From contig CAYSKO010000001.1 in NCBI GenBank assembly GCA_964431835.1, forward strand, positions 42,131-106,130: a stretch of 64,000 nucleotides of DNA, read 5' to 3'. The translations under genes were made by a program, and so were the position numbers. The notes under the pieces are model-generated. The model was not told the origin of the DNA. It worked only from the letters and a program-made list of their open reading frames with translations, and did not search any database. Below are positions 12,137 to 36,398 of the stretch, in pieces. The stretch is from an uncultured Planctomycetia bacterium (GTDB taxonomy: Bacteria; Omnitrophota; Gorgyraeia; 2-02-FULL-51-18). Within the stretch, counting starts at the first letter, position 1. The number at the start of each line of letters is the position of its first letter.

Positions 12137-12661
12137 ATGAAGAAATGCGGGATTCGGGATCTTGAAGAGGTTCTTAAAAAAACAAGCGATTGTCAGGTTG
12201 TCGACGTGCGCGAACCGGCTGAGTTTGAATCCGAACATATCCAGGGAGCTTTCTCGTTGCCGTTGTCCGCTCTCCGGGAGGATAACACGAAGGTTTTTAA
12301 AAAAGAGAAGGCGCTTTATCTTTTATGCCGGAGCGGAAATCGCGCCTGCAAAGCGGCGGATCAATTGGAGAGATTCGGATTTTCAGATCTATACGTGGTT
12401 GAGGGGGGTCTTGAAGCCTGGGCTGGCGCGGGCAAGCCCGTGCTTCGGGGATCCCGCCGTGTGTGGAGCCTGGACCGTCAGGTGCGTTTTGCCGCGGGTT
12501 CGCTGGTGATGAGCGGCGTCCTCTTTTCAAAATTTGTTAATCCCTATTGGCTGGGTCTGTCGGTATTTGTCGCGGCCGGCCTTATTTTTTCGGGAATCAC
12601 CGACACCTGCGGCATGGCCATGCTCCTTGCCCGGATGCCCTGGAATCAAAAGAAAGCGTAG
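12137..12661 (+). CDS. Rhodanese-domain protein with a C-terminal DUF2892/YgaP-like membrane segment
   Basis: The rhodanese active-site loop is 'LYLLCRSGNRA'. The C-terminus is hydrophobic ('WLGLSVFVAAGLIFSGITDTCGMAMLL'). Confidence 0.65.
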   Translation: MKKCGIRDLEEVLKKTSDCQVVDVREPAEFESEHIQGAFSLPLSALREDNTKVFKKEKALYLLCRSGNRACKAADQLERFGFSDLYVVEGGLEAWAGAGKPVLRGSRRVWSLDRQVRFAAGSLVMSGVLFSKFVNPYWLGLSVFVAAGLIFSGITDTCGMAMLLARMPWNQKKA

Positions 12662-12667
12662 GTTCTT

Positions 12668-14308
12668 ATGAAACTATTGATCGTTGGCGGCATTGCGGGA
12701 GGCGCGTCATGCGCGGCCCGGGCAAGGAGGCTTTCAGAACAGGCAGAAATCATTCTCTTTGACCGGGGACCCTTCGTGTCCTTCGCCAACTGCGGATTGC
12801 CCTACTATGTCGGCAATGTCATCAAGGAAGAAAAAAACCTTCTGGTGGCTACGCCGGAGCTTTTCAAAGAGCGGTTTAATATACAGGTCCGTACTGAAAG
12901 CGACGTTTTATCTATCGACCGCGCCAATAAAAAAATCCAGGTTAAGGACCTCAAATCGGGGAGCATTTATTGGGAATCATACGACGCGCTGGTGCTTTCG
13001 CCGGGAGCTGCGCCGATTCGTCCGCCGCTTCCGGGCATTGATCTTCCCGGTATCTTTGCCTTGCGCACGATTCCGGATAGCCGCCGCATTCTCCAATGGA
13101 TCTCGGAGAAAAAAGCCAAAGACGCCGTGATCATCGGCGGAGGTTTTATCGGGCTTGAGATGGCTGAAAATCTGGTCCGCTGCTGCATTCACACGTCCGT
13201 GCTTGAAATGCAGCCTCAGGTGTTGCCTCCTTTTGATCGGGAAATGGTTTTTGGACTTCACGAACATTTGAAATCCAGGGGCGTGACTCTGTATCTAGGC
13301 GATGCTCTGACGGGGTTCGAAGCGGACGCGGACGGGAAGATCACGGTGTTATCCAAGTCCGGCTTGAAACTCAGAACGGATATCGTCATTCTTTCTATCG
13401 GGGTGAAGCCGGAAATCACGCTCGCCAAAAATTGTGGACTAGAAACCGGCGAACGAGGCGGGATTCGCGTCAATGATCAAATGAGAGCCTCTGATCCCAA
13501 GATATGGGCTGTCGGGGATGCCGTGGAAAAACGTGATTTCCTTACGAGTGAGTGGACGACCATTCCGCTGGCCGGACCGGCCAACCGTCAGGGGAGAGTT
13601 GCGGCCGATAGTATCTTTGGCCGTGATTCAAAGTTCAGGGGAGTCCAGGGAACCGCTGTTTGCAAAGTATTCGACCAGGTAGCCGCCATGACCGGAGCCA
13701 GCGAAAAGGCCCTTCGGCGGTTGGGTAAGACTTACGAGAAAGTTTATCTGCATCCCGGCCATCACGCGGGATATTATCCGGATGCCAAACCCATTCATTT
13801 AAAACTTTTGTTTTCTCCTCAGGATGGGCGCGTGTTGGGAGCTCAGGCGATTGGCGAGGAAGGTGTGGAAAAACGCATCGACGTGATCGCGATGGCCATT
13901 CAGATGAAGGCAACAGTTTATGATCTGGAAGAGGCAGAGCTTTGCTATGCGCCTCAGTTCGGCGCGGCCAAAGATCCAGTGAACATTGCCGGCATGATCG
14001 CCGCCAACGCGTTGAGAGGTGACGCGCCCCTTGCTCAGTGGGATGGAATCGATTTGAAGAAGGACTTTTTTTTGGATGTGCGAAATAAGGAAGAATATAA
14101 AAAGAGCCACGTTGGGGGAGCACTCAACATTCCCCTAAATCATTTAAGATCGGAAATGAACAGGCTCCCCCGCGATCGTGCGATCTATGTTTATTGCGGA
14201 GTGGGGCAAAGGGCCTATTACGCGACACGGGTACTCCTCGAAAACGGATTCGATGCTAGAAATATTTCAGGCGGCATCCAGACTTTTGATGGGCAGATTT
14301 CCGGCTAA
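12668..14308 (+). CDS. CoA-disulfide reductase / NADH oxidase-family flavoprotein with a C-terminal rhodanese domain (CoADR-RHD)
   Basis: The FAD-binding N-terminus is 'KLLIVGGIAGGASCA', with the redox Cys in 'SFANCGLPY'. A second dinucleotide fold is 'VIIGGGFIGLE'. The C-terminal rhodanese loop is 'IYVYCGVGQRA'. Confidence 0.75.
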   Translation: MKLLIVGGIAGGASCAARARRLSEQAEIILFDRGPFVSFANCGLPYYVGNVIKEEKNLLVATPELFKERFNIQVRTESDVLSIDRANKKIQVKDLKSGSIYWESYDALVLSPGAAPIRPPLPGIDLPGIFALRTIPDSRRILQWISEKKAKDAVIIGGGFIGLEMAENLVRCCIHTSVLEMQPQVLPPFDREMVFGLHEHLKSRGVTLYLGDALTGFEADADGKITVLSKSGLKLRTDIVILSIGVKPEITLAKNCGLETGERGGIRVNDQMRASDPKIWAVGDAVEKRDFLTSEWTTIPLAGPANRQGRVAADSIFGRDSKFRGVQGTAVCKVFDQVAAMTGASEKALRRLGKTYEKVYLHPGHHAGYYPDAKPIHLKLLFSPQDGRVLGAQAIGEEGVEKRIDVIAMAIQMKATVYDLEEAELCYAPQFGAAKDPVNIAGMIAANALRGDAPLAQWDGIDLKKDFFLDVRNKEEYKKSHVGGALNIPLNHLRSEMNRLPRDRAIYVYCGVGQRAYYATRVLLENGFDARNISGGIQTFDGQISG

Positions 14309-14319
14309 CAACCGGCTAA

Positions 14320-14982
14320 ATGAACTACCCTAAAAATAGAAACTCTCCTGAAAATCAGATAACCTTCGTCAGAAAACTGATACAATCGGTACTGGAGGGA
14401 TATTCGTTGCTAGGTACATTCAGATCGATACTTTTCATATTTTCCCTAATCCTATGTTTGGGTAAGCCTTCATTCGCTGAAAATAGAGTATTTACCAATG
14501 AAGATGTACGCCAACTTTTTGAAAAATCCGAAGACTTTAAGAAATCCCATTCCGTTATGAAGCAGCAGCGCGAACGGCTCAAGGCCATTTTAAATGGCTT
14601 TTTGGTCGGCGACACTCAAACAATCAATGAAAAATCGGATGAACTCTTGCAGGCTATGAAAGAGGTCATCGCTGGCTATCCGCCGTCAGGCGAAAAAGAA
14701 TCTGCTGCATGGCAGTCGATGGCCGATATCGTTAACGAAACGTATTTGATGAAAGAAGAGGCGTCGAAAAACGACTACAATAAAGCTTACGTGCACTTTA
14801 GCCATATCTCTAGAAGCTGCATTCAATGCCACCAAGTAGTTAGAGAATGGGGCAAACTGCCCGAACCTGCGCCGCCCGCAGAAGAAAAGAACCTTTCGCC
14901 TGACGCTGCTAATCAAAAAGAGGCTGCTTCAAAAAAGTCTACAAAGAAAAACAACCCAGACGCACCGTTGGTTTCACAGTAA
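14320..14982 (+). CDS. Putative secreted c-type cytochrome (single CxxCH)
   Basis: It has an N-terminal hydrophobic signal-like segment and the heme-binding motif 'CIQCH'. Confidence 0.4.
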   Translation: MNYPKNRNSPENQITFVRKLIQSVLEGYSLLGTFRSILFIFSLILCLGKPSFAENRVFTNEDVRQLFEKSEDFKKSHSVMKQQRERLKAILNGFLVGDTQTINEKSDELLQAMKEVIAGYPPSGEKESAAWQSMADIVNETYLMKEEASKNDYNKAYVHFSHISRSCIQCHQVVREWGKLPEPAPPAEEKNLSPDAANQKEAASKKSTKKNNPDAPLVSQ

Positions 14983-15352
14983 TTCCAATTAATTTTATAA
15001 TAATTAAAACTTCGATCTTTCCTCGCTCCGAACGTTCAGACCGGTCCGCTTCGAATAAAGCCTCCAGCAGTAAACTTTGAGAAGAAGGGATAAAGCGGGC
15101 AAATTACGCTTGCCGCTTCTCATGGGGGTTTCTTGCTGTCAGTAAAAGAACTCATTGGAGACGGCACATCGAACCTGGTTCGGTAGCTATTCTATAGGCG
15201 GTACGCTAAGAGCATTCTAGGCATCGGGGAAGCCCCCGATGTTCCCCCCGCAGTTCCCCTTAAAGATAATCAGGGCTTCCCCTCATTTTTATGGGCTCCC
15301 GAGCCATCTATACTTATTGCATAACGGATCGATCAAACGAGGAGACCGCCCC

Positions 15353-15763
15353 ATGTCGAAGACTGAGCCCACGATTCAAAAATTCATGACGACGCAGCCG
15401 TATTCTATCGAGGCTTCCGAAAAGCTCGAGTCAGCCGTCAAGATCATGTCCGATCGAAAAATTCGCCACTTGCCGGTGACGCGACAGGGTGAGGTGATCG
15501 GCATGCTGAGCGACCGTGACGTGAAGCTTGCGATGGGCATCCAGGGGCTTGATCTGAACCGCCTGCCGGTCTTGGATTTTGCTACTGAAAGACCGTACAC
15601 CGTGGATCCGGACATGCCGATCGGACAGGTCTGCACGACCATGGCCTCGAAGCATTACGGTTCCGCGATCGTGATGCAGAACGGTAAGCTCGTCGGCATT
15701 TTCACGGCGGTGGACGCGTGCCGGGCGCTCGCGGAGATCGTCGCGACGCGCTATCATGCGTAA
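15353..15763 (+). CDS. CBS-domain pair protein
   Basis: Tandem CBS motifs are 'IRHLPV...VIGMLSDRDV' and 'GSAIVMQNGKLVGIFTAVD'. A GGAG RBS precedes the ATG at 15353. It is a paralog of the gene at 22820. Confidence 0.7.
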   Translation: MSKTEPTIQKFMTTQPYSIEASEKLESAVKIMSDRKIRHLPVTRQGEVIGMLSDRDVKLAMGIQGLDLNRLPVLDFATERPYTVDPDMPIGQVCTTMASKHYGSAIVMQNGKLVGIFTAVDACRALAEIVATRYHA

Positions 15764-15816
15764 CGACCCATTGGCGACGCCGGAACAATCAGGGGCTTGA
15801 AAAGGAGAAGAGCTTG

Positions 15817-16725
15817 ATGGGTGTGGGCACGAGAATGGTAAGGGGTCACAACTGGCCGATCATCGCCTTTTTTGCATTTACGACCTTGGGGGCGCTGATC
15901 GGGACGCCTTGGTATCTGCATCACTTCGGGGGCTCTCTTGCGGAGGTCCTCCTGACCCTGTTTTTCATCGAGGCGACGGGAATGGCCATTACGGTCGGCT
16001 ATCATCGCTATTACGCCCACGCCACGTTCAAGACAAACCCCCTTATCCAATTTCTGATCCTTTTCTTCGGCGCGGCGGCGTTCGAGCAGTCGGCGCTGAC
16101 TTGGGCCTCGGGGCACCGCGACCATCACCGTTACGTGGACACGGCGGCGGATCCTTATAGCATCAAAAAAGGGTTTTGGTATGCCCATATCGGGTGGATG
16201 ACCCTGTGGCAACAGAAGCCGGACTATAGCAACGTAAAAGATCTTCTGAAGAACAAGATGGTCATGCAACAGCATGACCACTATGTTTTGTGGGGTTTAT
16301 TCGCGGGCATCCTCTTTCCGGTCTTTTTGGGGGCCCTGATGGGACACGCGCTCGGCGCCCTCATTCTGGCCGTATTTTTAAGGATCACCTTCGTTTACCA
16401 CGCGACGTTCTGTATCAACTCGGTTTGCCACACGTTCGGCAAAGCCACTTACGATTTGCATGCGACCGCGAGGGACCACTGGTTTGCAGCTTTTTTAACC
16501 AACGGAGAGGGGTACCATAGTTTTCATCACCGCTTTCCGACGGATTACCGCAACGGGATCCGCGCCTATCATTGGGACCCTAGCAAGTGGGTCATCGCTC
16601 TTTTGGAGCGGATCGGGATGGCCTGGGATTTAAAGCGCGTACCGGATTCGGTCATCTTGCAGGCAAGGATTGCCGCCGAAAACGTAACGTTTGGCGAACG
16701 GTTAACCGGAAAGCAAAGGATCTGA
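15817..16725 (+). CDS. Membrane fatty-acid (acyl-lipid/acyl-CoA delta-9-type) desaturase
   Basis: The three histidine boxes are 'HRYYAH', 'HRDHHRY' and 'HSFHHRFP'. The protein has multiple TM segments. An AAGGAG RBS precedes the ATG at 15817. Confidence 0.75.
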   Translation: MGVGTRMVRGHNWPIIAFFAFTTLGALIGTPWYLHHFGGSLAEVLLTLFFIEATGMAITVGYHRYYAHATFKTNPLIQFLILFFGAAAFEQSALTWASGHRDHHRYVDTAADPYSIKKGFWYAHIGWMTLWQQKPDYSNVKDLLKNKMVMQQHDHYVLWGLFAGILFPVFLGALMGHALGALILAVFLRITFVYHATFCINSVCHTFGKATYDLHATARDHWFAAFLTNGEGYHSFHHRFPTDYRNGIRAYHWDPSKWVIALLERIGMAWDLKRVPDSVILQARIAAENVTFGERLTGKQRI

Positions 16726-16726
16726 T

Positions 16727-17440
16727 ATGAATCTCAACGAATTAAAGAACTTGAAATCGACCGAAGAGCTGAAGCGTGAGCAAAAAACGACACTTGAAAC
16801 GGCGCGGAGGAAATACGGTTTTCTGGCGCGGCTTCTTTTTCTATTCATGGACGTTTTCTATGGAAAGAAGCGGACTTTATCCAAATTCAAGGTCCTTGAG
16901 GTGATCGCGCGGGTGCCTTATCAGTCGTGGGAGCACGTCGCCTATATCGCCATGACCCATACATACGCCATGCCGGATTTCGCGCGCAGGATCTTCGACT
17001 TCGTGAAGGAGTCTCGCGAGCAGCAGGACAACGAGCAGTGGCACCTTTTGATCCTCGAAGAATTGACCCAGAAAAAGAACGCCACGGAAAACTTTTTCCA
17101 TTTCAGGATCCTTCCACAGATCGCCGCGTTCTTCTATTACCACGTCAGCTGGCTGCTGTACGTGATGAAGCCGTCCTGGAGTTACGGCCTGAACGCGGAC
17201 TTCGAAGACCATGCGGAGCATGAATACATGCTGTTGGTGAACGAAAACCCTCAATTCGAAAACGAGCCTTTCGCCAGCGTCTTCGCGGAAGATTATGGCT
17301 TTTATCCGACCCTCGCCGACCTTTTCCGGCGTATCGGGATCGATGAGCGCATGCATAAATTGGAAAGCTTGGCGAGGACCGACAACGCCCGTTTTTCCCG
17401 CGAACCAGATTCCAGGGCTGCGGAAAAAGGCAGGGTTTGA
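16727..17440 (+). CDS. Diiron-carboxylate oxidase of the alternative oxidase (AOX/PTOX)-like family
   Basis: The four-helix diiron ligand pattern is E ('LEVIARVPYQSWEH'), ExxH ('NEQWH'), E ('DFEDHAEHE') and ExxH ('IDERMH'). The last resembles the AOX 'NERMHL' motif. Confidence 0.5.
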   Translation: MNLNELKNLKSTEELKREQKTTLETARRKYGFLARLLFLFMDVFYGKKRTLSKFKVLEVIARVPYQSWEHVAYIAMTHTYAMPDFARRIFDFVKESREQQDNEQWHLLILEELTQKKNATENFFHFRILPQIAAFFYYHVSWLLYVMKPSWSYGLNADFEDHAEHEYMLLVNENPQFENEPFASVFAEDYGFYPTLADLFRRIGIDERMHKLESLARTDNARFSREPDSRAAEKGRV

Positions 17441-17471: not shown

Positions 17472-18860
17472 GTGTCCAAAGCCGTAAGCACCCCGAGTGT
17501 CGAATCCATCCTCAATACCGTCATCGACGCGATTATCGCGATTGATGAAGACGGCGTCATTCAGTCAGTTAATCCCGCCGTGGAAAAGATTTTCGGCTAT
17601 CATCCTGAAGAGCTCATTGGAAAAAAAAACGTCAGCGTGCTCATGCCCAATCCTTACAGCCGTGAACACGACGGGTACATTCAAAATTACCTTCGGACGG
17701 GAATAGCCAAGATTATCGGCATCGGGCGCGAAGTGGTCGGGCAGAGAAAGGACGGGACGGTTTTCCCGGCGTATCTCGGTATTAATGAGGGCCGCAAAGA
17801 AGGAGGCAAGCGATTCTTCACCGGGGTCATCCGCGACATCACCGAAGTCAAGCGATACCAGGACGAGCTCAAAAAACAGGGTGAATTCACTGCCGCCGTC
17901 CTTAACACCGTGCGCTCGCTCGTGTTGGTGCTTGACCGCCAGGGCCGTATCGTCAATTTTAACCGCGCCTGTGAGGAGACCACCGGCTATTCCTTTCAGG
18001 AAATCGCGGGAAAGCCGTTTTGGGATTTTTTTCTTACAATGGAAGATAAAGATTCGATCATCAAAAGTTTTTTGAGCGCGGATCCAAAACAGCTCGTGAA
18101 TAATTTTGAAACGATCTGGCTGACCAAGAAAGGCGAGAGGCGGCTCATCGCATGGTCCAATTCGTTGCTTTTTGACAAGCAGAACTCTCCGGAATACGTC
18201 ATCGGCACAGGCATTGATATCACCGAGCGCCGTCATTTGGAGCACATGGTGCTCGAGATCACGAAAAAAGAACAGCGGCGAATTGGGCAGGAACTTCATG
18301 ACGGTTTGGCGCAACATTTAACGTCTACGGCAATTGTGGCAAAGGTACTCGAACAAAAATTGACGCGCCAATCGTCGCCGGCCGCGCGAGAATTAAAGCG
18401 AGTGGTCGGAATGGTGAACCAGGCCGTCACGCAGACGCGCGAGCTGGCCCAGGGTCTTTATGCTTTGGAAATGCATTCCGAAGATCTGGTCTCGTCGCTT
18501 AAAAAACTCGCTAGCGATACGGAAAAAACGCTGGGCATCCGGTGTGTCGCCCAAATCGGAAATGTTCCTGTTCCCGGGGGAGAAGTGGCGAGGCATCTTT
18601 ACCGTATCGCCCGGGAGGCCGTCGGCAACGCGGTGAAGCACGGCCAGGGGAAGAATATTACAATTCAATTAAGGAAGAAGAATGTCCGCGAGTCAGAATT
18701 GAGAATCGAAAACGACGGCAAGCCTTTCAAAACCCCCACCCCTCAGAAAGGGCTGGGATTACGCATGATGCGATCTCGGGCTGCGCTCTTCAACGCTTCG
18801 TTCGACATCGCGGCGTCACGCACGGGCACCGTCGTCAGCTGTATTTTTCCCGTTTCATGA
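17472..18860 (+). CDS. Sensor histidine kinase: FixL-like heme-type PAS + second PAS + HisKA_3 + HATPase_c
   Basis: PAS1 is 'LMPNPYSREHDGYIQNYLRTG...GQRKDGTVFPAYLGINEG...RFFTGVIRDITE', which closely resembles the FixL heme-PAS including the proximal His. The H-box is 'EQRRIGQELHDGLAQHLT' (NarX/DegS type). The G-boxes are 'GKPFKTP...GLGL'. Confidence 0.75.
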   Translation: MSKAVSTPSVESILNTVIDAIIAIDEDGVIQSVNPAVEKIFGYHPEELIGKKNVSVLMPNPYSREHDGYIQNYLRTGIAKIIGIGREVVGQRKDGTVFPAYLGINEGRKEGGKRFFTGVIRDITEVKRYQDELKKQGEFTAAVLNTVRSLVLVLDRQGRIVNFNRACEETTGYSFQEIAGKPFWDFFLTMEDKDSIIKSFLSADPKQLVNNFETIWLTKKGERRLIAWSNSLLFDKQNSPEYVIGTGIDITERRHLEHMVLEITKKEQRRIGQELHDGLAQHLTSTAIVAKVLEQKLTRQSSPAARELKRVVGMVNQAVTQTRELAQGLYALEMHSEDLVSSLKKLASDTEKTLGIRCVAQIGNVPVPGGEVARHLYRIAREAVGNAVKHGQGKNITIQLRKKNVRESELRIENDGKPFKTPTPQKGLGLRMMRSRAALFNASFDIAASRTGTVVSCIFPVS

Positions 18861-19534: not shown

Positions 19535-19773
19535 TTGTTTGTGCAGGGGGATTCCCCGATACCCCCCCGAGATTCTCTCCCAAGAAATACAGGGCACGCC
19601 CCTGTTTTTAAAAACCCCCCTTTCTTCTAGTCTTTAGACTGGAAAGAATAACTCCCCCCACAATGGAGAATCGTTCCGTGAAAAAAATTCTCGACGCCTG
19701 TGGCCTATTTAAAACAATCGGACGAAGAAGTTTAAGGAGAGACAGCCGTGATCCGTATTGAAAACAAGACGAA

Positions 19774-21318
19774 ATGAATAAGTCAAGCACCCCCAGCGTT
19801 GAATCCATCCTCAAAACCGTCATCGATGCGATCATCTCGATCGACGAAACCGGTATTATCCAGTCCGTGAACCCCGCCGTCGAAAAGATTTTTGGCTATT
19901 CTCCCGAAGAGCTCATGGGAAAGAACGTCAGCATGCTCATGCCCGATCCTTACAGCCGCGAACATGACGGATATCTTAAAAAGTACCTTCGGACCGGCCA
20001 GGCCAAGATCATCGGCATCGGACGGGAAGTCGTCGCCAAACGAAAAGACGGGACTCTTTTTCCGGCGTATCTGGGCGTCAGCGAGGGTCACAAAGAGGGA
20101 GGCAGGCGTTTTTTCACCGGCATCATCCACGATCTCACCGAGGTCAATGCCTTGAAAAAGAAGGAAGCGCTGCTAAAAGCCTACGGCACCTACATGAACG
20201 CCATTATTGAAACCGTGAAGGACCCGTTTATCGTTCTTGATTCGACTCTGCGTATCAAAATGGCCAATCAAAGTTTCTATCAGACATTTCAGGTCGCTCC
20301 CGGTGAAACAGAAAATAAACTCATTTATGATGTGGGGAACGGCCAATGGAATGTCCCCGCCTTTCGTAAACTTTTGGAAAGCATTCTATCTCAAAAAATG
20401 GGATTTGATGATCATGAGGTCGAGAAAGAATTTCCGGGTATTGGACGCAGGATTATGACTGTCAGTGGCCATCAGATCCAAGACGATGGAAAAGAAGAAA
20501 CGATTCTTCTGACCGTTAGGGATATTACTTATCGCAAACAGATGGAGGAAAAGCTTAAAAGAGCCGTTTTAGAGCTTGAGCATTCCAACCGTGAGTTGGC
20601 GCAATTTGCCTACGTCGCTTCGCATGATCTACAAGAGCCTCTTCGCAAAGTCATCTCTTTTACCGAGCGCCTAAAAGAACAGACTAAAACGCTGGGGGAC
20701 GAAGCAAAAGTGAATTGTGAGAAAATTCATGCGTCCGGGATACGAATGAAAAGGGTTATTGAAGACATTCTTTATTTTTCAAGGATCGGTTCTCAAGAAA
20801 AAGCTTTTGAAGAGACCGACTTAAATCGAATCGCTCAGGATGTGATTTCCGACTTGGAGTTAAAAATTTTGGAAACGAAGACGAAGATCGAAGTAAAAGA
20901 ATTGCCGAAGATCCAGGCCAATAAATCATTGATACGCCATGTATTTCAAAATTTAATTCTAAATTCGATTAAATTCGCGAAGAAAGATGTCCGGCCCGAC
21001 ATTATTATCGACTGTTATTCTCAAGATAACTCGGTTGAAATCCGCTTTAAGGACAATGGCATCGGTTTCGATGAGAAGTATGTGGATAGAATATTCAAAC
21101 CTTTTCAACGTTTACACGCAAAACAGGAGTATGATGGAACGGGGATTGGTTTATCGATCTGTCATAAAATCGTCACTCAACATGGCGGCACGATAACAGC
21201 TAAGAGTAAGCCAGGTGAAGGCGCTACCTTTATTGTAATGCTCCCAATTAATGCGCATCAGGGAATCCCCGGTGCGCCCTCCAAGATTCTCTCCAAAGAA
21301 GTTCAGGTATTGCCCTGA
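19774..21318 (+). CDS. Sensor histidine kinase: FixL-like heme-type PAS + PAS + HisKA + HATPase_c
   Basis: Its N-terminal PAS is about 80% identical to PAS1 of the 17472 gene. The H-box is 'FAYVASHDLQEPLRKVISF'. The N/G boxes are 'NLILNSIKF', 'DNGIGFD' and 'GTGIGLSICHKIV'. Confidence 0.8.
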   Translation: MNKSSTPSVESILKTVIDAIISIDETGIIQSVNPAVEKIFGYSPEELMGKNVSMLMPDPYSREHDGYLKKYLRTGQAKIIGIGREVVAKRKDGTLFPAYLGVSEGHKEGGRRFFTGIIHDLTEVNALKKKEALLKAYGTYMNAIIETVKDPFIVLDSTLRIKMANQSFYQTFQVAPGETENKLIYDVGNGQWNVPAFRKLLESILSQKMGFDDHEVEKEFPGIGRRIMTVSGHQIQDDGKEETILLTVRDITYRKQMEEKLKRAVLELEHSNRELAQFAYVASHDLQEPLRKVISFTERLKEQTKTLGDEAKVNCEKIHASGIRMKRVIEDILYFSRIGSQEKAFEETDLNRIAQDVISDLELKILETKTKIEVKELPKIQANKSLIRHVFQNLILNSIKFAKKDVRPDIIIDCYSQDNSVEIRFKDNGIGFDEKYVDRIFKPFQRLHAKQEYDGTGIGLSICHKIVTQHGGTITAKSKPGEGATFIVMLPINAHQGIPGAPSKILSKEVQVLP

Positions 21319-21369
21319 TTTTCCAAATAGCCTCTAACGCGTAATCTTTAGACAACGGAGGCAAGCAAG

Positions 21370-28575: not shown

Positions 28576-29521
28576 ATGAATAAAACGTTCAAGTTGCTCA
28601 TAGGGCACGATGGATCGGATGAGGCGAATGCGGCGTTGCGTGATCTAAAAAAGAGCCGGGTTACCGCATAAAGTGGAAGCGGTAGTCCTTACCGTGGCGG
28701 ACGTCATAATGCCCCGCGGTCGATATAAGGTTAGAGATGCTCCGGAATTTGTTGCTTCCGCTATTAAAAAGGCGCATACCCGCGGGATGAAAGAAATGAG
28801 TGCAGCGCACTCTTTTTCCGCGAGTGCCTGCCGTCAGCTCAAAGCTGATTTTCCCTCTTGGAAAATATCCCCTGAAGTTTCCGTGGATTCCCCCGCCTGG
28901 GGTTTGGTTAAAAAAGCGGATAAGTGGAAACCGGATTTGATTGTGGTGGGCTCCCACAGGCATTCGACGGCGGAGCGCTTCATTTTCGGCAGTGTTTCTC
29001 AGAAGGTGCTGGTTGTCGAGACAGCTTTTTCCGTGCGCGTGGGACGAGGTGGGACGGAAAATGGTATCTCGGCAGTACGTCTTATTATTGGAGTGGACGG
29101 CTCGCCTGAAAGCCAAGCCGCAGTCCATGGCGTGTCCGGGCGCTTGTGGCCAAAAGGCAGTGCGGTTCGCCTGGTAGCCGTTGTCGATGCGCGGCTTGCT
29201 ACCGAAATCGTTGTTCCGACTCCCTCCATACGCCGCTGGGTAAAAAGAAACGATCAGGATCCCCGCGCATGGGTGCATCGAATGCTTGAAAGCTTTAAGA
29301 AAAAACTAACGGACTCGGGGCTTGCCGTTTCGACGCTGGCCAAAGAAGGAGACCCGAAGCAAATTTTGCTTAAGGAAGCAGAGCGTTGGGGAGCCGATAG
29401 TATCTTTTTAGGATCAAGAGGGCTGGGCATGGTCGAGCGCGTTTTTTTTGGTAGCGTGTCTTCTGCCGTCGTGGCCCGGGCGCATTGCTCAGTCGAAGTG
29501 GTTCATTTAAAGCGAAGCTAG
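28576..29521 (+). pseudogene. Tandem universal stress protein (paralog of 21785) with a +1 frameshift in an A6 tract
   Basis: ATG 28576 gives 'MNKTFKLLIGHDGSDEANAALRDLKKSRVTA*'. The +1 frame continues with 'KRAGLPHKVEAVVLTVADV...'. This matches the paralog 'LHDLRKGGMPDEAEAFVFTVADS'. One fewer A in 'ctAAAAAAg' (about 28646-28651) would restore a single 314-aa ORF. Confidence 0.7.
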
Positions 29522-29530: not shown

Positions 29531-31120
29531 ATGGCCGGCCTTGACCTAGCAGCCGCCTTTATTCCCGTCCTGTTTTTAATTTGGCTCATCACCAAACGCA
29601 GGGGATTGTCCGCCAGTGTCGCGTTGCCGCTGGCCGCTGCGGTTCTTTATGTCTTGCAGCTAATTTACTTTAAAGCCAGTCTGAATACTCTTCATGCCGC
29701 CGTCCTGGACGGATTGCTCACTGCCTTAACCCCGCTCTCCATTATTTGGGGAGCGATTTTTTTATTTAAGACCATGGAGCACTCAGGGGCGCTCCGCACC
29801 ATCAGTGGATGGCTGAACCAGATTACAGCTAATCGAGTGGGTCAGCTCATGATCGTAGGGTGGTCGTTTTCTTTTTTGATCGAAGGGATTAGCGGATTTG
29901 GGACTCCTGCGGTTTTGGCCGCGCCGCTCTTGGTGGGGTTGGGTTATGCCGCAGTGCCGGTCGCGGTTTTTTGTCTGATCATGAACAGCGCGCCTGTTTC
30001 GTTCGGTGCCGTGGGAACACCGGTTTGGTTTGGGTTTAGTGAGCTTAGTTTTGCCGGCGGAGAATTATTGGAGCTTGGTTTTAAAACAGCGCTTATTCAC
30101 ACGGCAGCCTCTTTGGTTATTCCTCTTTTGGCCTTGCGTCTGGTGGTTTCTTGGCAGGAGATAAAGAAGAACATTCTTTTTATTTATCTAGCCATTTTAA
30201 GTTCTGTTTTGCCGTATTTAATTTTGGCGCAATTTAGTGTCGAGTTTCCGTCTATTTTGGGAGGTCTTGTGGGGCTAGTGTCAGCGGTGATTGTGGCCAA
30301 GACGGGCTTGGGGTTGGCGCGCGAGGAATCGAAGCCACACTCCGACCGAAAGCCCATTTCGGCCGGAGCTTTAACGAAAGCGCTTTTCCCAATCTGGGCT
30401 ACCGTTCTTATTTTACTAATCTCGCACGTGCCTTATTTTGGCATACAAGAGTGGCTGGTCGAAGCATCCCCTCATTGGAGACTTAACATTGGAAGCGTGG
30501 GTGAGGTTCAAATCAGCCCATCTCTCGTTTTTCAACTGCAACATATCTTTGGCACGGAAATAAATTGGAAACACGCAGCGCTTTATGTGCCGTCCTTTCT
30601 GCCGTTTGGGCTTGTTTCGGTGATTTGTTTTGCGCTTTTTAAGATGCCAATGAAAACCATACAAAAAACATGGGAGGAGACTTGGAATCGGCTGGGTAAA
30701 GCAGTCACCGCCCTTTTGGGCGCGATGGTATTTGTAAAATTATTTATGCTGGGCGGAGAAAGCTCTTCGGCCAGCATCATCGGTCGTTCACTGGCGAATG
30801 TCGCGGGCGAAGGTTGGCAATTTGTGGCAGTTTATCTCGGCGCTTTGGGGGCGTTTTTTTCCGGGTCTAATACGGTTTCCAATCTGACTTTTGGGGGGAT
30901 ACAGGATTCCATTGCTACAAACCTTAGTCTCGATCGGACAACGATTCTTGCGCTCCAATCGGCTGGAGGGGCGATGGGGGGTATGATTTGCATTCACAAT
31001 ATCGTGGCCGTTTCGGCCGTGTTGGGATTGCACAATCAGGAAGGTTCCATCTTGAGAAAAACATTCGCGCCGATGTTGGTTTATGGTGTAATCGCTGGGT
31101 TGGTTTCAATTTTTATATAG
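29531..31120 (+). CDS. L-lactate permease (LctP family)
   Basis: It is about 529 aa with 12 or more TM segments. The LctP-type motifs are 'GFGTPAVLAAPLLVGLGY' and 'SGSNTVSNLTFGGIQ'. Confidence 0.75.
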   Translation: MAGLDLAAAFIPVLFLIWLITKRRGLSASVALPLAAAVLYVLQLIYFKASLNTLHAAVLDGLLTALTPLSIIWGAIFLFKTMEHSGALRTISGWLNQITANRVGQLMIVGWSFSFLIEGISGFGTPAVLAAPLLVGLGYAAVPVAVFCLIMNSAPVSFGAVGTPVWFGFSELSFAGGELLELGFKTALIHTAASLVIPLLALRLVVSWQEIKKNILFIYLAILSSVLPYLILAQFSVEFPSILGGLVGLVSAVIVAKTGLGLAREESKPHSDRKPISAGALTKALFPIWATVLILLISHVPYFGIQEWLVEASPHWRLNIGSVGEVQISPSLVFQLQHIFGTEINWKHAALYVPSFLPFGLVSVICFALFKMPMKTIQKTWEETWNRLGKAVTALLGAMVFVKLFMLGGESSSASIIGRSLANVAGEGWQFVAVYLGALGAFFSGSNTVSNLTFGGIQDSIATNLSLDRTTILALQSAGGAMGGMICIHNIVAVSAVLGLHNQEGSILRKTFAPMLVYGVIAGLVSIFI

Positions 31121-31235: not shown

Positions 31236-32276
31236 GTGGGGATGGGCAATGCTCCGTGGTTATATTTTTTTGTTTCTGCTACGGGTGTGATAGCGGCCGG
31301 AATGATGATCGGCCGTGTCAGCGGCGAGCTTGGAGAACGGTTGAAGCTTGGTCGTGCATGGTCCGGAGCTGTCTTGCTTTCATTCGCAACAACTTTGCCC
31401 GAACTGGCCACGATCGTGACCGTGGCTATGCGCGGCGAAGCTGGAATGGCGCTGGGCGCCGTATTCGGAAGTGTGATTTTTAACCTTTTTATTCTCGTTC
31501 TGATCGATTTTATTGATCCACAGTCGATTTACCGCAAGCTCTCTTTTGCGCATATTGGAACCGGACTCATCGGCTGTATGTTGCTGGGGCTGGCGATTAC
31601 GGGAATTGCCCTTGGGCATGCCGGTATCGGTGGAGCGCACGGGATCGGCCTGGGGCATGTTGGCATCATCTCCATAGGAATTTTTTGCCTGTATTTGCTA
31701 GGCCAGTACGCAATATTTCGCGCGGCGCAGGGTCGTGATGATCAGTCGGACCATGTAAAACTAAAGACAACCATGGACGGCTGGCCCCTTAGAAAAATCA
31801 TCCTGGCTTATGGCGGTTTGGCGTTCGTGATTGTAGTTGCGGCCTTCAATCTTGGCGTTGCCGCCGAAGGATTAGCCTCTTACTACCAGTTGGGAGCAAC
31901 GTTTGCAGGCGCGACATTGCTTGGCATTGTGACGAGTTTGCCTGAGATCACTAACGCGATCACATGTGCCCGTCAGCGGGAGCATGATCTGGCGGTCGGC
32001 AATATTTTAGGCGCAAATGCGATGGTGCTTTCCATCATTTTTATCGTGGACTTATTTTATATCAATGGAAGGTTCTTGTACGTGGTGGGACAGTCCGATG
32101 CCATCGCCTCCATTTCTATGGCCGGATTAGCGATCGTCATGCAGAGTCTCGCGATCGGAGCGTTGGCGGTCCGCAGTCAAGAGCGTGTATGGCATTTCGG
32201 TATCGTGTCGGTCCTACTAGCCATCCTGTACGGATTAAGTCTAATCATTGCGTATCACTTTTCTTCTTCGGTATGA
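31236..32276 (+). CDS. Na+/Ca2+ exchanger-family (CaCA, YrbG-like) membrane protein
   Basis: It has two alpha-repeat regions, 'GAVFGSVIFNLFILVL' and 'GNILGANAMVLSIIFIV', separated by a hydrophilic loop. Confidence 0.7.
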   Translation: MGMGNAPWLYFFVSATGVIAAGMMIGRVSGELGERLKLGRAWSGAVLLSFATTLPELATIVTVAMRGEAGMALGAVFGSVIFNLFILVLIDFIDPQSIYRKLSFAHIGTGLIGCMLLGLAITGIALGHAGIGGAHGIGLGHVGIISIGIFCLYLLGQYAIFRAAQGRDDQSDHVKLKTTMDGWPLRKIILAYGGLAFVIVVAAFNLGVAAEGLASYYQLGATFAGATLLGIVTSLPEITNAITCARQREHDLAVGNILGANAMVLSIIFIVDLFYINGRFLYVVGQSDAIASISMAGLAIVMQSLAIGALAVRSQERVWHFGIVSVLLAILYGLSLIIAYHFSSSV

Positions 32277-32332: not shown

Positions 32333-34927
32333 ATGAACACAAAAATCTGGCATTCCATGGATGTGTCCGCCGCTATTCAGGAGGTGACGAGCGATGCAAA
32401 GCAAGGGTTAAGCGCCGCGGAGGCATCACTCCGCTACAAACAATACGGCCCCAACGAGCTCAGCGTCGGAAAAAAGCGCGGTCCGCTCCGGATGTTTTTT
32501 GGCCAATTCACAGACTTTATGATTGTGGTGCTTTTGACTGCAGCCATTGTTTCGGCGCTGGTTGGAGGTTTGAAGGACGCCATCGCCATTTTGGCAATTC
32601 TCGTCATCAACGCCATTATCGGGTTTGTTCAGGAATATCGGGCTGAGAAGGCCATGGAAGCGCTCAAAGCCATGGCGGCTCCGACGGCCTCTCTGATCCG
32701 GGAAGGCAAAACGGCGGTCCTCGCCGCGCGGGAGATCGTCCCGGGGGACGTGGTGCTCCTTGAAGCGGGGCGTATCGTCCCATCAGACCTGCGGCTTATC
32801 GAATCCGCTCGTTTGAAGGTCGACGAATCGGCCCTGACGGGTGAGTCGGTCCCTGTCGAAAAAATAACGGAACCCGTGGAGGGGGACTCGATTCCTCTGG
32901 GGGACAGAAAAAATATGGCTTATAAGGGAACGATCGTTACTTATGGCAGAGGCAGCGGCGTAGTAGTGGCCACCGGCATGACGACCGAGTTTGGAAAGAT
33001 CGCTACGATGCTTCAGGGGACACCGGAAGTGAAAACTCCTCTGCAAAAACGCCTGGCTCATTTGGGCAAGCGGTTGTCCGTGGCGGCGCTCTTTATCTGC
33101 GCCGCTGTATTTGTCGCGGGCATTTTACGCGGAGAGTCTTTGATCCTTATGTTTATGACGGCGGTGAGCTTGGCGGTCGCCGCGATCCCGGAGTCTCTTC
33201 CCGCGGTGGTCACCATTTCACTCGCGCTTGGCGCAAAAAAGATCGCCCAAAAGAAAGCGCTGGTGCGAAAGCTTCCAGCAGTCGAAACGCTGGGGTCCGT
33301 GACTTATATTTGCACGGACAAAACAGGCACGCTGACGCTCAATCGCATGAAAGCCGAAGTGTTCTTTTGCGGCGGCGTCGTGGAGAAGGAGCCTAAATCT
33401 CAAGGACCCTGGAATGATTTTCTAAAGGCCATGGCGCTTTGTAATGATAGTTCTATAGACAGCAAAGGAATAGTCGTTGGCGACCCGACCGAGACGGCTC
33501 TCCTGGAGGCGGCCGCTCGGGGAGGAGTGAAAAAAAGTGAGATTGAAAAAACCTATCCCCGGGTGCTGGAAATTCCGTTTGATTCGGATCGCAAACGCAT
33601 GACGACTTTCCATAAAAGTCCCGAGGGGCATTTTATTTCTTTTACGAAGGGAGCCGTGGAGGCCATAGACCCTAAGCCTGAAATCTTGGCCGCCGCGGAA
33701 AAGATGGCGGGCGAGGGACTCCGAGTACTCGCATTCGGCATGAAAAAATGGGATGCGCTCCCGGCCGAGATAAACACGGAGACGGTTGAGCGTGACCTGA
33801 CATTCCTGGGTCTGGTTGGGCTCATGGATCCGCCCCGGGAGGAAGCGCGTTTGGCGGTGGACAAATGCAAGACCGCTGGAATAGCCCCCGTCATGATCAC
33901 GGGAGACCATCCCGGCACCGCTAGAGCCATCGCCGAACGTTTGGGAATACTGGAGAAGGGCGCCGAAGTGATGACGGGAACGGAACTGGCTAAAATTTCT
34001 ATGGAAGAATTTGAAGCGCGCGTCAAAGGCATCCGGGTTTACGCGAGAGTCTCGCCCGATCAGAAACTCAAAATAGTCACGGCTTTGCAGGACAAGGGAG
34101 AGTTTGTGGCAATGACGGGCGACGGGGTTAATGACGCTCCTGCCCTCAAGAAGGCGGATATCGGCGTCGCTATGGGCATCACGGGAACGGACGTGGCCAA
34201 GGAAGCCAGCTCCATGATTCTCTTGGATGATAATTTCGCGACGATCGTCCGCGCCGTCGAAGAGGGAAGAAGGATTTACGACAACATGCGGCGGTTCATC
34301 CGTTACGCCGTGACGACCAACAGCGCGGAGGTCTGGATTATTTTTTTCGCGCCTTTTTTAGGGCTTCCCATCCCGTTTATCCCCATTCAAATCTTATGGA
34401 TCAATCTTTTGACGGACGGCTTGCCGGGGCTGGCGCTTGCCGCAGAACCGGCTGAAAAAAATGTGATGCGGCGTCCTCCTAGATCGCCTAGGGAAGGCGT
34501 ATTTGCCCAGGGGCTTGGGATTCACGTGATATGGGTGGGGCTTCTCATGGCCGCGCTCACACTTGGCGCAGAGGCTTGGTTGATACGAAAAGGGGTCGAT
34601 CATTGGCAGTCCATTATATTTACGACTCTTTGTGTGTCGCAATTGGCTCACGTGCTTTCTATTCGCTCTGAAACTGAATCACTTTTTAGACAGGGACTTT
34701 TTACAAACAAACCCCTTCTTTACACGGTACTCTTTACCTTCTTTCTCCAGATGTGCACGCTCTATGTCCCTCTTATGAACGATATATTTAAAACTAAGCC
34801 GTTGACAGCCATGGAGTTAGTCGTCGTTTGTGGGTTGTCCTCAACCGTTTTTTTTGCGGTGGAGATCGAGAAATGGATAAAAAGAAGCCGGCTTCGTTTA
34901 ACACCTGACTGCAGAAAAGGGGTATAA
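32333..34927 (+). CDS. P-type ATPase, Ca2+-transporting (type IIA/IIB-like)
   Basis: 'ICTDKTGTLT' is the phosphorylation site. The hinge is 'MTGDGVNDAPALKKADIGVAMG' and the A-domain is 'TGES'. It has the N-terminal 'Cation_ATPase_N'-like region and about 10 TM segments. Confidence 0.85.
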   Translation: MNTKIWHSMDVSAAIQEVTSDAKQGLSAAEASLRYKQYGPNELSVGKKRGPLRMFFGQFTDFMIVVLLTAAIVSALVGGLKDAIAILAILVINAIIGFVQEYRAEKAMEALKAMAAPTASLIREGKTAVLAAREIVPGDVVLLEAGRIVPSDLRLIESARLKVDESALTGESVPVEKITEPVEGDSIPLGDRKNMAYKGTIVTYGRGSGVVVATGMTTEFGKIATMLQGTPEVKTPLQKRLAHLGKRLSVAALFICAAVFVAGILRGESLILMFMTAVSLAVAAIPESLPAVVTISLALGAKKIAQKKALVRKLPAVETLGSVTYICTDKTGTLTLNRMKAEVFFCGGVVEKEPKSQGPWNDFLKAMALCNDSSIDSKGIVVGDPTETALLEAAARGGVKKSEIEKTYPRVLEIPFDSDRKRMTTFHKSPEGHFISFTKGAVEAIDPKPEILAAAEKMAGEGLRVLAFGMKKWDALPAEINTETVERDLTFLGLVGLMDPPREEARLAVDKCKTAGIAPVMITGDHPGTARAIAERLGILEKGAEVMTGTELAKISMEEFEARVKGIRVYARVSPDQKLKIVTALQDKGEFVAMTGDGVNDAPALKKADIGVAMGITGTDVAKEASSMILLDDNFATIVRAVEEGRRIYDNMRRFIRYAVTTNSAEVWIIFFAPFLGLPIPFIPIQILWINLLTDGLPGLALAAEPAEKNVMRRPPRSPREGVFAQGLGIHVIWVGLLMAALTLGAEAWLIRKGVDHWQSIIFTTLCVSQLAHVLSIRSETESLFRQGLFTNKPLLYTVLFTFFLQMCTLYVPLMNDIFKTKPLTAMELVVVCGLSSTVFFAVEIEKWIKRSRLRLTPDCRKGV

Positions 34928-34934
34928 TATTTAA

Positions 34935-36398
34935 ATGCAGGCAAACCGGTCCGATGATCCCCTGGATATTGATTTCGAGGGCATAGCCCTTCCCGCCGTA
35001 CTTTTGGGCACGGATCTCACGGTGCGCCGGTTTTCCCCCCAAGCGGAGAAAACGCTCAATCTCGTTAGCTCCGATATCAACAAGCCCATCACTGAAATCA
35101 AACTCTCTATCCAAGCTCCCGATTTGGATAAGTTGGTTTTGGCTGTGATCACTACGGGACAGGTCTTTGAAAGGGAAATTCAAGATAAAGCGGGGCGATG
35201 GTACTCCATGCGTATCCGTCCTTTTAAGAAAGAGAACGTGATAAGCGGCACGGTCATCGTCTTGGTCGACATTGACGACATCAAGAGAATCTCCGATGAT
35301 TTTAAGGAAGAGCGGGATTACTCCACCGCGATCATTGATACGCTCCGCGAACCCTTTCTGATCTTAAAAAATGATTTAACGATCGAATCCGCCAACCGGT
35401 CTTTTTATCATACTTTCGAGGCCTCTCCGGGGGGCACGCTCGGAAATGCGATCGACCAATGGTGCGATAGCATCGAATTAAAGAGCGCACTGAATGCACT
35501 TTTGCTAGAGCGTAAATCCATTAGAAATTTCGAAGTCCATCACGATTTTCCACGAATCGGATGGAAAACGCTATGTATGAACGTGCGCACCGTCCGTCCG
35601 GACAAACAAACGGACTTCATTTTTATAGGTATCGAAGACATTACCGAAAGAAGAGAAATTGAGTTGGAGCACGAGAAGACGGTCGCCGCATTGGAGCAAT
35701 TCGCTTCGGCGGCGTCCCATGACCTGAAAGCGCCGCTCCGAAAGATAATCGCTTTCGGCGAGCGCTTGAGACACGAGCTTCAGGGCGCGGGAAAGGAAAA
35801 CCTCGATAAAATGCTTGCTTCCGCCATCCGAATGAGCGTGCTCATGGAAGAGCTACTGCAATTATCGCGTCTTTCAGCGCGGCTCGAGTTGCTTGAGCCG
35901 GTAGATTTGAATGCCGTAGTGAAGGAAGTTCTTACGGATTTGGAAACGCTTATCGAAGAATCAAAAGCCGTCATCAGCGTGGAATCGCTACCTACGGTGA
36001 ATGCAAACAGCCTTCAAATGTACCAGCTTTTTCAGAACGTCATCGCGAACGCGCTGAAGTATAGGAAAGCGGATATCCCTCCGCATATTCAAATCACGAA
36101 ACAAAAACTCCCCGATGGATTTTCTCAAATAATCATCAAAGACAATGGGATCGGTTTCGATCAAAAGCAGGCCTGTGAAATCTTTAAACCCTTCGTCCGC
36201 CTTCACGGACAGAGTGAATATACCGGCACCGGATTGGGGTTGGCTGTCTGCAAGAAGATCGTCGGGCGTTATGGGGGAGACATCCAAGCGAAAAGTTCCC
36301 CGGGGCAAGGCGCCACCTTTACCATCGTGTTCCCGTTTGTGACCGACCTTTTGGAGTCGGATCTCTCCGAATTACCCATTGCGCCCGAACCCCGATAA
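34935..36398 (+). CDS. PAS-PAS-HisKA-HATPase_c sensor histidine kinase. It resembles the C-terminal module of CheB-CheR-PAS kinases.
   Basis: Its N-terminal PAS ('LTVRRFSPQAEKTLNLVSSDINKPITEIK') is homologous to the PAS of the 46422 gene. The H-box is 'FASAASHDLKAPLRKIIAFGERL'. The kinase boxes are 'DNGIGFD' and 'GTGLGLAVCKKIV'. Confidence 0.8.
   Translation: MQANRSDDPLDIDFEGIALPAVLLGTDLTVRRFSPQAEKTLNLVSSDINKPITEIKLSIQAPDLDKLVLAVITTGQVFEREIQDKAGRWYSMRIRPFKKENVISGTVIVLVDIDDIKRISDDFKEERDYSTAIIDTLREPFLILKNDLTIESANRSFYHTFEASPGGTLGNAIDQWCDSIELKSALNALLLERKSIRNFEVHHDFPRIGWKTLCMNVRTVRPDKQTDFIFIGIEDITERREIELEHEKTVAALEQFASAASHDLKAPLRKIIAFGERLRHELQGAGKENLDKMLASAIRMSVLMEELLQLSRLSARLELLEPVDLNAVVKEVLTDLETLIEESKAVISVESLPTVNANSLQMYQLFQNVIANALKYRKADIPPHIQITKQKLPDGFSQIIIKDNGIGFDQKQACEIFKPFVRLHGQSEYTGTGLGLAVCKKIVGRYGGDIQAKSSPGQGATFTIVFPFVTDLLESDLSELPIAPEPR

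Follow-up and report, generated by a model that had tools for sequence, protein, structure and literature searches.

The question raised by this locus is how far the genes of a 24-kb block (12137-36398) are controlled together, and by what. The block lies in a 64-kb stretch of DNA (the window) on contig CAYSKO010000001.1 of an uncultured bacterium. An earlier note, made from the sequence alone, had taken all of it as one coherent low-oxygen gene set under FixL-like haem kinases and a NarL-type regulator. Every gene named in that note was present and on the + strand, as judged from the open reading frame (ORF) listing and from Pfam and NCBIfam scans (Table 1). We found that about 11 of the 21 genes, between 15.2 and 23.7 kb, lie behind three promoters that share a conserved operator, while the remaining four or five transcription units had no such box. 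This segment probably forms a self-contained gas-responsive two-component regulon, most likely responsive to O2, which resembles the DosR system but has a FixL-type sensor. The observation in the earlier note was essentially right and the core of its interpretation holds; the extent of the regulon was overstated and the proposed cis-element was wrong.

Two histidine kinases (HK), HK1 and HK2, carry the predicted sensor. The motifs from which a FixL-like haem-pocket PAS had been proposed were found in both. Residues 10-134 of HK1 matched the solved FixL haem domains of S. meliloti and B. japonicum with E-values of 2e-33 to 1e-27 (1d06, 2.3e-33; 1dp6, 9e-31), with E. coli DosP ranking behind them at ~1e-12, and the haem-PAS of HK1 and HK2 was 48-59% identical to the solved FixL domains. 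The NCBIfam FixL model matched HK1 only over the haem-PAS segment (model positions 125-247, E 1.4e-43). The equivalents of B. japonicum FixL (BjFixL) His200 and Arg220, which are His66 and Arg86 in HK1, were invariant in all eight aligned PAS domains, and remained so over 23 homologues with identities down to 36%; the former is the proximal histidine on whose conservation the earlier note had staked its reading. In FixL, Arg220 hydrogen-bonds the bound O2 and underlies O2-specific inhibition. Ile216 and Leu236 were also invariant in the alignment with both FixL structures, while Ile215 and Ile238 were conserved or conservatively replaced. The PAS domains of HK1 and HK2 are true homologues of the FixL haem-PAS, for which haem binding and inhibition by O2 are predicted.

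The remainder of HK1 contains a second PAS and a HisKA_3/HATPase core whose solved relatives are VraS, DesK and DevS; a Pfam scan of HK1 detected no GAF domain, and two PAS domains stand in its place. HK2 resembled HK1 (~83% amino acid and 80-82% nucleotide identity) across the haem-PAS only, and its remainder was 39% identical to a third kinase, HK3, over 386 aa by BLASTP. The core shared by HK2 and HK3 is of the HisKA type, of the sort that neighbours CheB/CheR fusions. Since HK2 is HK1-like only in the haem-PAS and HK3-like elsewhere, it seems to have arisen recently through grafting of the sensor to a different transmitter. No gene for a phospho-competent regulator adjoins HK2, and HK3 had no haem-type PAS by Pfam, which assigned PAS_10 and PAS_4. 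Further along the window, at 46422-50223, a gene for a CheB-CheR fusion (876 aa) stands before one for a PAS-HisKA kinase, to which the HK2 and HK3 cores are paralogous, and 21029-21245 was 71% identical to 49967-50183 over 217 nt.

The gene for the response regulator (RR) has its ATG within the HK1 stop (ATGA at 18857-18860), an overlap that agrees with the translational coupling of a kinase to a NarL/FixJ-family regulator named in the earlier note. Within that family the RR was nearest to DevR/DosR rather than FixJ: its best PDB match was M. tuberculosis DevR (3c3w, 3.2e-31), followed by NarL (1e-28) and FixJ (8e-14). The acidic pocket is intact and the phospho-acceptor Asp is present. The recognition helix reads KTVESY as compared to KTVKNY in DevR, with K, E and S aligned to DevR K179, K182 and N183, which we take to be the base-contacting residues in the DevR-DNA structure.

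A comparison of intergenic sequences between the window and two orthologous loci revealed a shared element, and we built an nhmmer profile from seven copies of it. This element is a module of ~100 nt with three palindromes, ATCGGGGAWTCCCCGAT (Box A), GAGAtTCTC (middle) and TCAGGGCATGCCCTGA (Box B), and a -10-like hexamer, TAnnCT. Exactly three full modules, P1, P2 and P3, occurred in the window (E 1e-19 to 1e-23), and P3 had been outside the training set. When 13 modules from six genomes were aligned, the order from 5' to 3' was Box A, a C-rich stretch with the weaker middle palindrome, an A-tract, Box B, a fixed gap and the invariant TAnnCT. The centre of Box A lay 22 nt from that of the middle palindrome, which in turn lay 23.5 nt from that of Box B, and the hexamer started 31.5 nt after the centre of Box B; the geometry was fixed across modules (Box A to Box B, 45-46 nt; Box B to hexamer, 31-31.5 nt). 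Should the hexamer act as a -10 element, the sites would be centred, by our estimate, near -89, -67 and -43.5. In the window and in five orthologous loci all modules were intergenic or at gene 3' ends, and all faced downstream genes. The genes behind P1 are separated by 53, 1, 31 and -4 nt, the alternative oxidase (AOX)-like gene, in whose translation ExxH motifs were seen, starting 1 nt past the desaturase end. The gaps behind P3 are 4, 39 and -4 nt; the MauE-like gene, which overlaps the CBS stop by 4 nt, is the last that could be assigned to P3.

The earlier note had proposed a promoter search for a shared inverted repeat, with a palindrome at 19637-19648 as an example. Such a search does reveal a conserved palindromic module at three promoters, but the palindrome named is not the conserved element. 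Its sequence, AGTCTTTAGACT, is in fact located at 19629-19640, where it overlaps the -10-like hexamer of P2. We rejected it as the operator: it was unique except for a copy with two mismatches at P3, and only its TAGTCT part was conserved across orthologous promoters, as the -10-like hexamer. Covariation analysis found no compensatory changes in the module palindromes, and Rfam gave no match in the module region. The palindromes thus behave as protein-binding sites that fit dimers and not RNA helices, and we rejected the reading as an RNA element. A search of the block for FNR/FixK/CRP-type boxes (TTGAT-N4-ATCAA) found none, the count being at chance level. Box A and Box B of P3 lie within the last 60 nt (20 codons) of HK2 (21257-21318), and the TGA stop of HK2 is part of Box B. 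Since module P3 encodes it, the C-terminal tail of HK2 looks like read-through into a regulatory element. The leader of HK2 holds a short ATG-initiated ORF with a start near 19664.

In five orthologous loci, with HK identities of 61-81%, the module was found ten more times in full, once as a pair of adjacent boxes and once as a partial copy; the profile also recognized copies in those of the loci that were retrieved after it had been built. In L006 (HK identity 81%) three modules precede genes for a 149-aa protein, DUF6802 and a Cu-ATPase; for an ORF136 homologue (see below), tRNA_edit, DUF488 and a cytochrome c; and for a universal stress protein (USP), PEPCK(GTP) and CBS. The modules of L003 (61%) stand before ORF136 homologue-HSP20-DUF2934-PRTase-DLH, continuing to HK-RR, and before CBS-FG-GAP-USP-CBS. 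In L089 (69%) adjacent boxes precede desaturase-desaturase-HK-RR, and boxes are also found before the ORF136 homologue and before CBS-nosZDFYL...nnrS. L091 (78%) has a module before DUF488-132 aa-radical SAM. The modules of L092 (70%) precede ORF136 homologue-DksA-type zinc finger-D-2-hydroxyacid dehydrogenase-cytochrome c and CBS-VIT1-CitMHS. CBS genes thus follow modules in L003, L089 and L092 as well. Both in the window and at all five loci the RR gene is directly followed by a module, and the HK-RR operons of the window, L003 and L089 are preceded by modules or adjacent boxes. At L089:11767-20198 an entire nosZ-nosDFYL cluster and nnrS lie behind the operator and the CBS gene, which ties the sensor to N2O respiration there. 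The likeness of tandem USPs, CBS-only proteins and a NarL-family regulator to the DosR regulon, pointed out in the earlier note, was supported, since the conserved operator ties the system to USP and CBS genes in the window and, in orthologous loci, to HSP20, PRTase and DLH genes as well. The genes behind the modules in the relatives overlap the hypoxia sets of DosR, OsdR and the Lxa locus (PMC5069765, PMC12071387). To these the relatives and the window add putative O2-dependent or O2-replacing functions, namely desaturases, AOX and N2O reductase.

Kinases of PAS-PAS-HisKA_3 architecture with an adjoining NarL-type regulator are widespread, with thousands of metagenomic homologues. A profile search of genome contigs with the kinase alignment detected distant HK homologues, at no more than 41% identity, in Acidobacteriota, Verrucomicrobiota and Planctomycetota. 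Both the operator and the linkage to USP and CBS genes occurred only in the clade whose kinases reach 61% identity or more, and a metagenome-wide scan with the exact operator pattern returned the L003 contig only. The exact window sequence was present in two sequencing-run assemblies (L001 and L002) and one NCBI contig. A full-text literature search yielded no description of a natural system that joins a FixL haem-PAS to HisKA_3.

The first gene behind P3, ORF136, had no Pfam match and only 14 relatives among 1.84e9 representatives. In five of the six genomes, that of the window included, a member of its family comes first behind a module; the exception is L091, whose 132-aa ORF does not align with ORF136. 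We discarded an AlphaFold (AF2) model made from a two-sequence alignment (pLDDT 45). A model from 11 sequences reached a pLDDT of 82.7 and showed a (beta-alpha)5 topology. The top Foldseek matches of ORF136 were mostly receiver domains (E 2e-4) with TM-scores of only 0.5-0.6, and its sequence-profile matches to receivers were not significant. In the family NNE replaces the DD pocket and there is no Asp at the end of beta-3. Lacking both an acidic pocket and a phospho-acceptor Asp, the protein is best read as a phospho-blind, receiver-like protein restricted to this clade, with a predicted CheY-like fold.

We propose that the FixL-type PAS of HK1 holds a b-type haem, and that release of O2 from this haem would allow the HisKA_3 transmitter to autophosphorylate and pass the phosphate to the coupled DevR/NarL-type RR. 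Dimers of the RR would then bind the three palindromes cooperatively, about two helical turns apart. Binding would activate P1, which drives CBS-desaturase-AOX-HK1-RR and would create positive autoregulation; P2, which drives HK2; and P3, which drives the pseudo-receiver, tandem USP, CBS and MauE-like genes. Because HK2 joins the same haem-PAS to another transmitter, it probably conveys this signal to a different partner.

Several points weigh against this model. Haem binding, the ligand, the sign of regulation, the binding of the boxes by the RR and the transcription starts are all predictions from sequence, and since the starts are predicted only, the -43.5 position is itself an estimate. 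The RR departs from DevR at two of the three base-contacting positions, and the box arms are GGG-N4/5-CCC as compared to GGG-N8-CCC in the DevR and OsdR boxes. Given these two differences, it is linkage that assigns the boxes to the RR. The position of BjFixL Arg206 is occupied by Asn in HK1, Lys in HK2 and N, K or R in the orthologues; this residue of the FG loop contacts a haem propionate and is implicated in signal relay. The leader of HK2 is ~140 nt long (19634-19773) relative to ~20-40 nt at P1 and P3. The modules all come from loci that were retrieved through the kinase, and the association between module and kinase is thus partly built in. The homologues at 41% identity or less keep the HK-RR pair and have neither the module nor USP/CBS neighbours.

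The nearest known systems are the M. tuberculosis dormancy system DosS/DosT-DosR (DosRST, also DevRST) and Streptomyces OsdK/OsdR, which likewise combine a HisKA_3 haem kinase with a NarL-type regulator, DevR being the closest solved relative of the RR. The kinase-regulator operon appears to be autoregulated there and here. Tandem helically phased boxes with the proximal site at about -42.5 are a hallmark of DevR promoters (PMC3177182). In systems of the DevRS type there are two or more such boxes, of which the proximal one overlaps the -35 region. The present palindromes have GGG/CCC arms and may share the tandem, phased layout, with a predicted proximal site near -43. The arms AGGGC/GCCCT resemble those of the OsdR/DevR boxes, and tandem USPs, CBS-pair proteins, HSP20 and PRTase are common targets (PMC5069765). 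Relative to the DosRST regulon (USP, CBS Hrp1-like, alpha-crystallin/HSP20, PRTase, kinase operon), the window has USP, CBS and the kinase operon, and L003 has HSP20, PRTase and DLH. As in DosRST, two kinases share one type of sensor domain. On the other hand, the haem is predicted in a FixL-type PAS, whereas DosS and DosT have tandem GAF domains of which the first binds haem. The arms lie 3-4 bp closer than in OsdR (AGGGCCGATCGGCCCT) and DevR (GGGACTWWAGTCCC) boxes, and the boxes do not conform to the Dev box, an 18-20-bp palindrome GGGACT-WW-AGTCCC (PMC5069765, PMC3177182). The recognition helix has K-E-S instead of K-K-N, the second kinase has a HisKA transmitter, the desaturase, AOX, nosZ and pseudo-receiver are additional targets, and the host lineage is uncultured and lies outside the Actinobacteria.

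FixL/FixJ of rhizobia, Caulobacter and Burkholderia share the haem-PAS, with its proximal His and distal Arg, the soluble multi-PAS kinase and a partner regulator with a LuxR/GerE-type helix-turn-helix. HK1 differs from FixL in having a HisKA_3 and not a HisKA (PF00512) transmitter and, like HK2, in not conserving Arg206. The RR is far closer to DevR/NarL than to FixJ, and with no FixK/FNR relay and no FNR box it appears to act directly on its targets. The Lxa locus of Burkholderia cenocepacia has the same contiguous multi-gene layout with several USPs and metabolic and regulatory genes, is induced at low O2 and is thought to act downstream of a FixL-type sensor (PMC12071387). FixK control at TGAT-N6-ATCA is proposed there, whereas the palindromes here have GC arms suited to a NarL-type regulator, and the direct regulon is predicted at about 11 genes compared to 50.

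The same system and operator could respond to NO, CO or the redox state of the haem instead of O2, and we regard this as unlikely. Haem-PAS domains do bind O2, CO and NO, the operator of L089 drives nosZ and nnrS, which belong to NO/N2O metabolism, and the FixL Arg206 position is not conserved. The presence of one sensor domain in two kinases also recalls the division of labour between DosS and DosT, for which the ligand question is likewise debated. However, the distal Arg220 is invariant, and the first operon encodes O2-consuming enzymes (desaturase and AOX), which argues for a logic of O2 supply. A second possibility is that the module is not the operator of the RR but belongs to another transcription factor, an RNA leader or a mobile promoter cassette, the adjacency to the kinase being coincidental. 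The box spacing is indeed unlike that of every characterized DevR, OsdR and NarL site (PMC5069765, PMC3177182), and we infer the binding of the RR to the boxes. Nevertheless, the recurrence of the module right after the RR gene at six loci, and upstream of HK-RR at three, is a pattern of autoregulation; inverted repeats of 16-18 bp fit GerE-type dimers; covariation and Rfam were both null; and an FNR/CRP-type box is absent from the block. We consider such a coincidence very improbable.

The regulon could also extend over all 21 genes, as the earlier note held in its full version, through read-through from P3 and sites too weak to detect. This would agree with the location of all genes on one strand. 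We predicted no + strand terminator between 23688 and 24194, nor a convincing one anywhere between 12 and 36.4 kb, and transcription from P3 might continue into the genes for pyrophosphate-dependent phosphoenolpyruvate carboxykinase (PPi-PEPCK), D-lactate dehydrogenase (D-LDH), USP and LctP, all of which suit a fermentative, hypoxic physiology. In relatives the operator precedes a D-2-hydroxyacid dehydrogenase (L092), a PEPCK-CBS fusion (L006) and cytochromes c. On the other hand, we found no module, regex box or position weight matrix (PWM) match above background before the rhodanese/CoADR/CxxCH, small ORF/PPi-PEPCK/D-LDH, USP2/LctP or CaCA/Ca-ATPase/HK3 genes; weak single-box sites were rejected on the basis of the same PWM scan. 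Three PPi-PEPCK orthologue loci had no module either, and membership of PEPCK in the regulon is thus not supported. CoADR, rhodanese, CaCA and Ca-ATPase genes were never beside the orthologous systems at the five loci. The rhodanese operon lies upstream of P1, out of reach of read-through. The inclusion of Ca2+ export and CoADR/rhodanese in the set accordingly found no support from relatives or upstream sequence, and control of the whole block is in our judgement a poor prospect. Under the smaller O2-responsive regulon, the flanking operons are read as neighbours, some of them apparently suited to fermentative life.

Among these neighbours, the largest gene of the block, which the earlier note did not list, encodes a PPi-PEPCK with full-length homology (~1080 of 1083 aa, residues 40-1119 aligned) to the solved enzymes, including that of Actinomyces israelii (6K31; 8E1U). 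PF26300 is found in its orthologues, and named PEPCK matches reach ~60% identity at best, in Verrucomicrobiae, Elusimicrobiota, Omnitrophica and others. Differently from the solved PPi-PEPCKs, it stands beside a predicted hypoxia regulon with no preceding operator and is coupled to D-LDH, its stop overlapping the D-LDH start (ATGA at 27442-27445). The coupling of the two enzymes points to a PEP/pyruvate branch point in fermentation. Both tandem-USP genes listed in the earlier note exist, but the second (USP2) is frameshifted by 1 nt near 28650-28672 in an A6/CC/GGG context, with the N-terminus (MNKTFKLLIGHDGS...) in a different frame from the rest. The frameshift is probably genuine since the sequence was identical in two independent assemblies (L001 and L002), and USP2 is probably a real pseudogene or subject to a programmed shift. 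The gene described as cytochrome c has the CxxCH motif, but its match to cytochrome c' (21.9 bits) fell below the cut-off of 26.5, and it is not homologous to the module-driven cytochromes c of relatives. With rhodanese and CoADR it forms an adjoining, putative thiol/sulfur-redox operon outside the predicted reach of the operator. The second CBS gene, behind P3, was 81% identical to the first over 90 nt.

Table 1. Coordinates of the genes and promoter elements in the window and of the ORF136 homologues
Feature	Position	Strand	Basis or remark
Rhodanese-YgaP	12137-12661	+	Pfam/NCBIfam
CoA-disulfide reductase-rhodanese (CoADR)	12668-14308	+	Pfam/NCBIfam
CxxCH protein ("cytochrome c")	14320-14982	+	sub-threshold cytochrome c' match
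P1 module	15216-15315	+	nhmmer E 1.6e-19; upstream of CBS-desaturase-AOX-HK1-RR
P1 Box A	15223-15240		ATCGGGGAAGCCCCCGAT
P1 Box B	15270-15285		TCAGGGCTTCCCCTCA
P1 hexamer	15309-15314		TATACT
CBS-pair-only protein, P1 operon gene 1	15353-15763	+	Pfam CBS x2, E 1.4e-24
Membrane fatty-acid desaturase, O2-dependent, His-box type	15817-16725	+	Pfam FA_desaturase E 2.5e-16
AOX-like di-iron protein	16727-17440	+	Pfam AOX 39.1 bits, cut-off 22.7
HK1, soluble: FixL-type haem-PAS (aa 10-134), second PAS, HisKA_3, HATPase_c	17472-18860	+	Pfam, PDB, NCBIfam
NarL/DevR-type RR, REC + GerE HTH, 225 aa	18857-19534	+	Pfam
P2 module	19536-19634	+	nhmmer E 8.9e-23; upstream of HK2
P2 Box A	19544-19560		
P2 Box B	19589-19605		
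P2 hexamer	19628-19633		TAGTCT
HK2: haem-PAS on HisKA/HATPase core	19774-21318	+	Pfam, BLASTP
P3 module	21255-21348	+	nhmmer E 1.9e-19; upstream of ORF136-USP-CBS-MauE-like
P3 Box A	21257-21273		
P3 middle palindrome	centred 21287		AGATTCT
P3 Box B	21303-21318		
P3 hexamer	21342-21347		TAATCT
ORF136 pseudo-receiver	21370-21780	+	predicted fold; Pfam match absent
Tandem-USP protein, P3 operon gene 2	21785-22780	+	Pfam Usp x2, E 2e-37
Second CBS-pair-only protein, P3 operon	22820-23308	+	Pfam CBS x2
MauE/DoxX-like small membrane protein	23305-23688	+	Pfam MauE 28.5 bits, cut-off 27; called as gene in L001 too
PPi-PEPCK, 1083 aa	24194-27445	+	PDB 6k31/8e1u, E = 0
NAD-dependent D-LDH	27442-28455	+	Pfam 2-Hacid_dh; NCBIfam D-LDH
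Frameshifted tandem-USP gene (USP2)	28576-28671 + 28673-29521	+	two frames
L-lactate permease LctP	29531-31120	+	Pfam/NCBIfam
CaCA antiporter	31236-32276	+	Pfam/NCBIfam
PMR1/SERCA-type Ca2+-ATPase	32333-34927	+	Pfam/NCBIfam
HK3: PAS_10 + PAS_4, HisKA, HATPase	34935-36398	+	Pfam
ORF136 homologues	L003:7385-7777, L006:11729-12145, L089:11245-11658, L092:4179-4598		

A 48-nt direct repeat (5683-5730 and 36404-36451, 92% identical), which is the 3' part of tRNA-Met, brackets 30.7 kb that contain the whole finding. The intact tRNA-Met is at 5652-5728, while the second copy is a fragment that begins 6 nt past the HK3 stop and is followed by a hairpin like that after the intact tRNA. Among the ORFs scanned inside 5.7-36.4 kb there was no Phage_integrase, only an IS200-like Y1 transposase (11455-12063). 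An identical tRNA-Met fragment was found in a relative, at L093:9565-9605, with a Phage_integrase gene 4.5 kb away.

Other features of the window were also noted. A 113-nt direct repeat (9022-9134 and 11373-11485, 98% identical) flanks two genes, one for a KaiC-like ATPase (9250-10764), the other for a CheB methylesterase domain that stands alone (10715-11359); the second copy of the repeat runs into the transposase gene, directly upstream of the block. Two giant ORFs, at 2-5539 (>1845 aa, cut by the window start) and 37690-46314 (2874 aa, - strand), flank the 5.7-37.7 kb segment and have 60-63% G+C as compared to ~50% in most of the remaining window. Defence-type genes comprise a GHKL (HATPase_c_3) protein beside the tRNA (5941-7992) and, within 56259-62930, a type I restriction-modification methylase subunit and a HerA-like anti-phage helicase. 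At 36661-37563, close beyond the repeat formed by the tRNA fragment, two short PD40 beta-propeller ORFs are apparent pieces of one disrupted gene.

As predicted here, the system is a variation on FixLJ and DosRST and not a new category. It is possible, although we hold this view only tentatively, that the locus represents a DosR-style dormancy or hypoxia programme outside Actinobacteria, with a FixL-PAS sensor, an undescribed three-palindrome operator and a lineage-specific, phospho-blind pseudo-receiver as a target in five of the six genomes, and that it may ride on the 30.7-kb segment bracketed by tRNA-Met; if true, this would be a transferable low-oxygen adaptation island. The chimera of a FixL PAS, a DevS-like transmitter and a DevR-like regulator would be an example of natural sensor swapping, and the pseudo-receiver may be a new kind of accessory protein in two-component signalling. 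With the fixed three-site promoter as a guide, the whole regulon could be listed for any genome of the clade. Since the DosR core of tandem USPs, a CBS-only protein, alpha-crystallin and PRTase recurs under another sensor and another operator, it may represent an ancient modular hypoxia toolkit and not a mycobacterial peculiarity.

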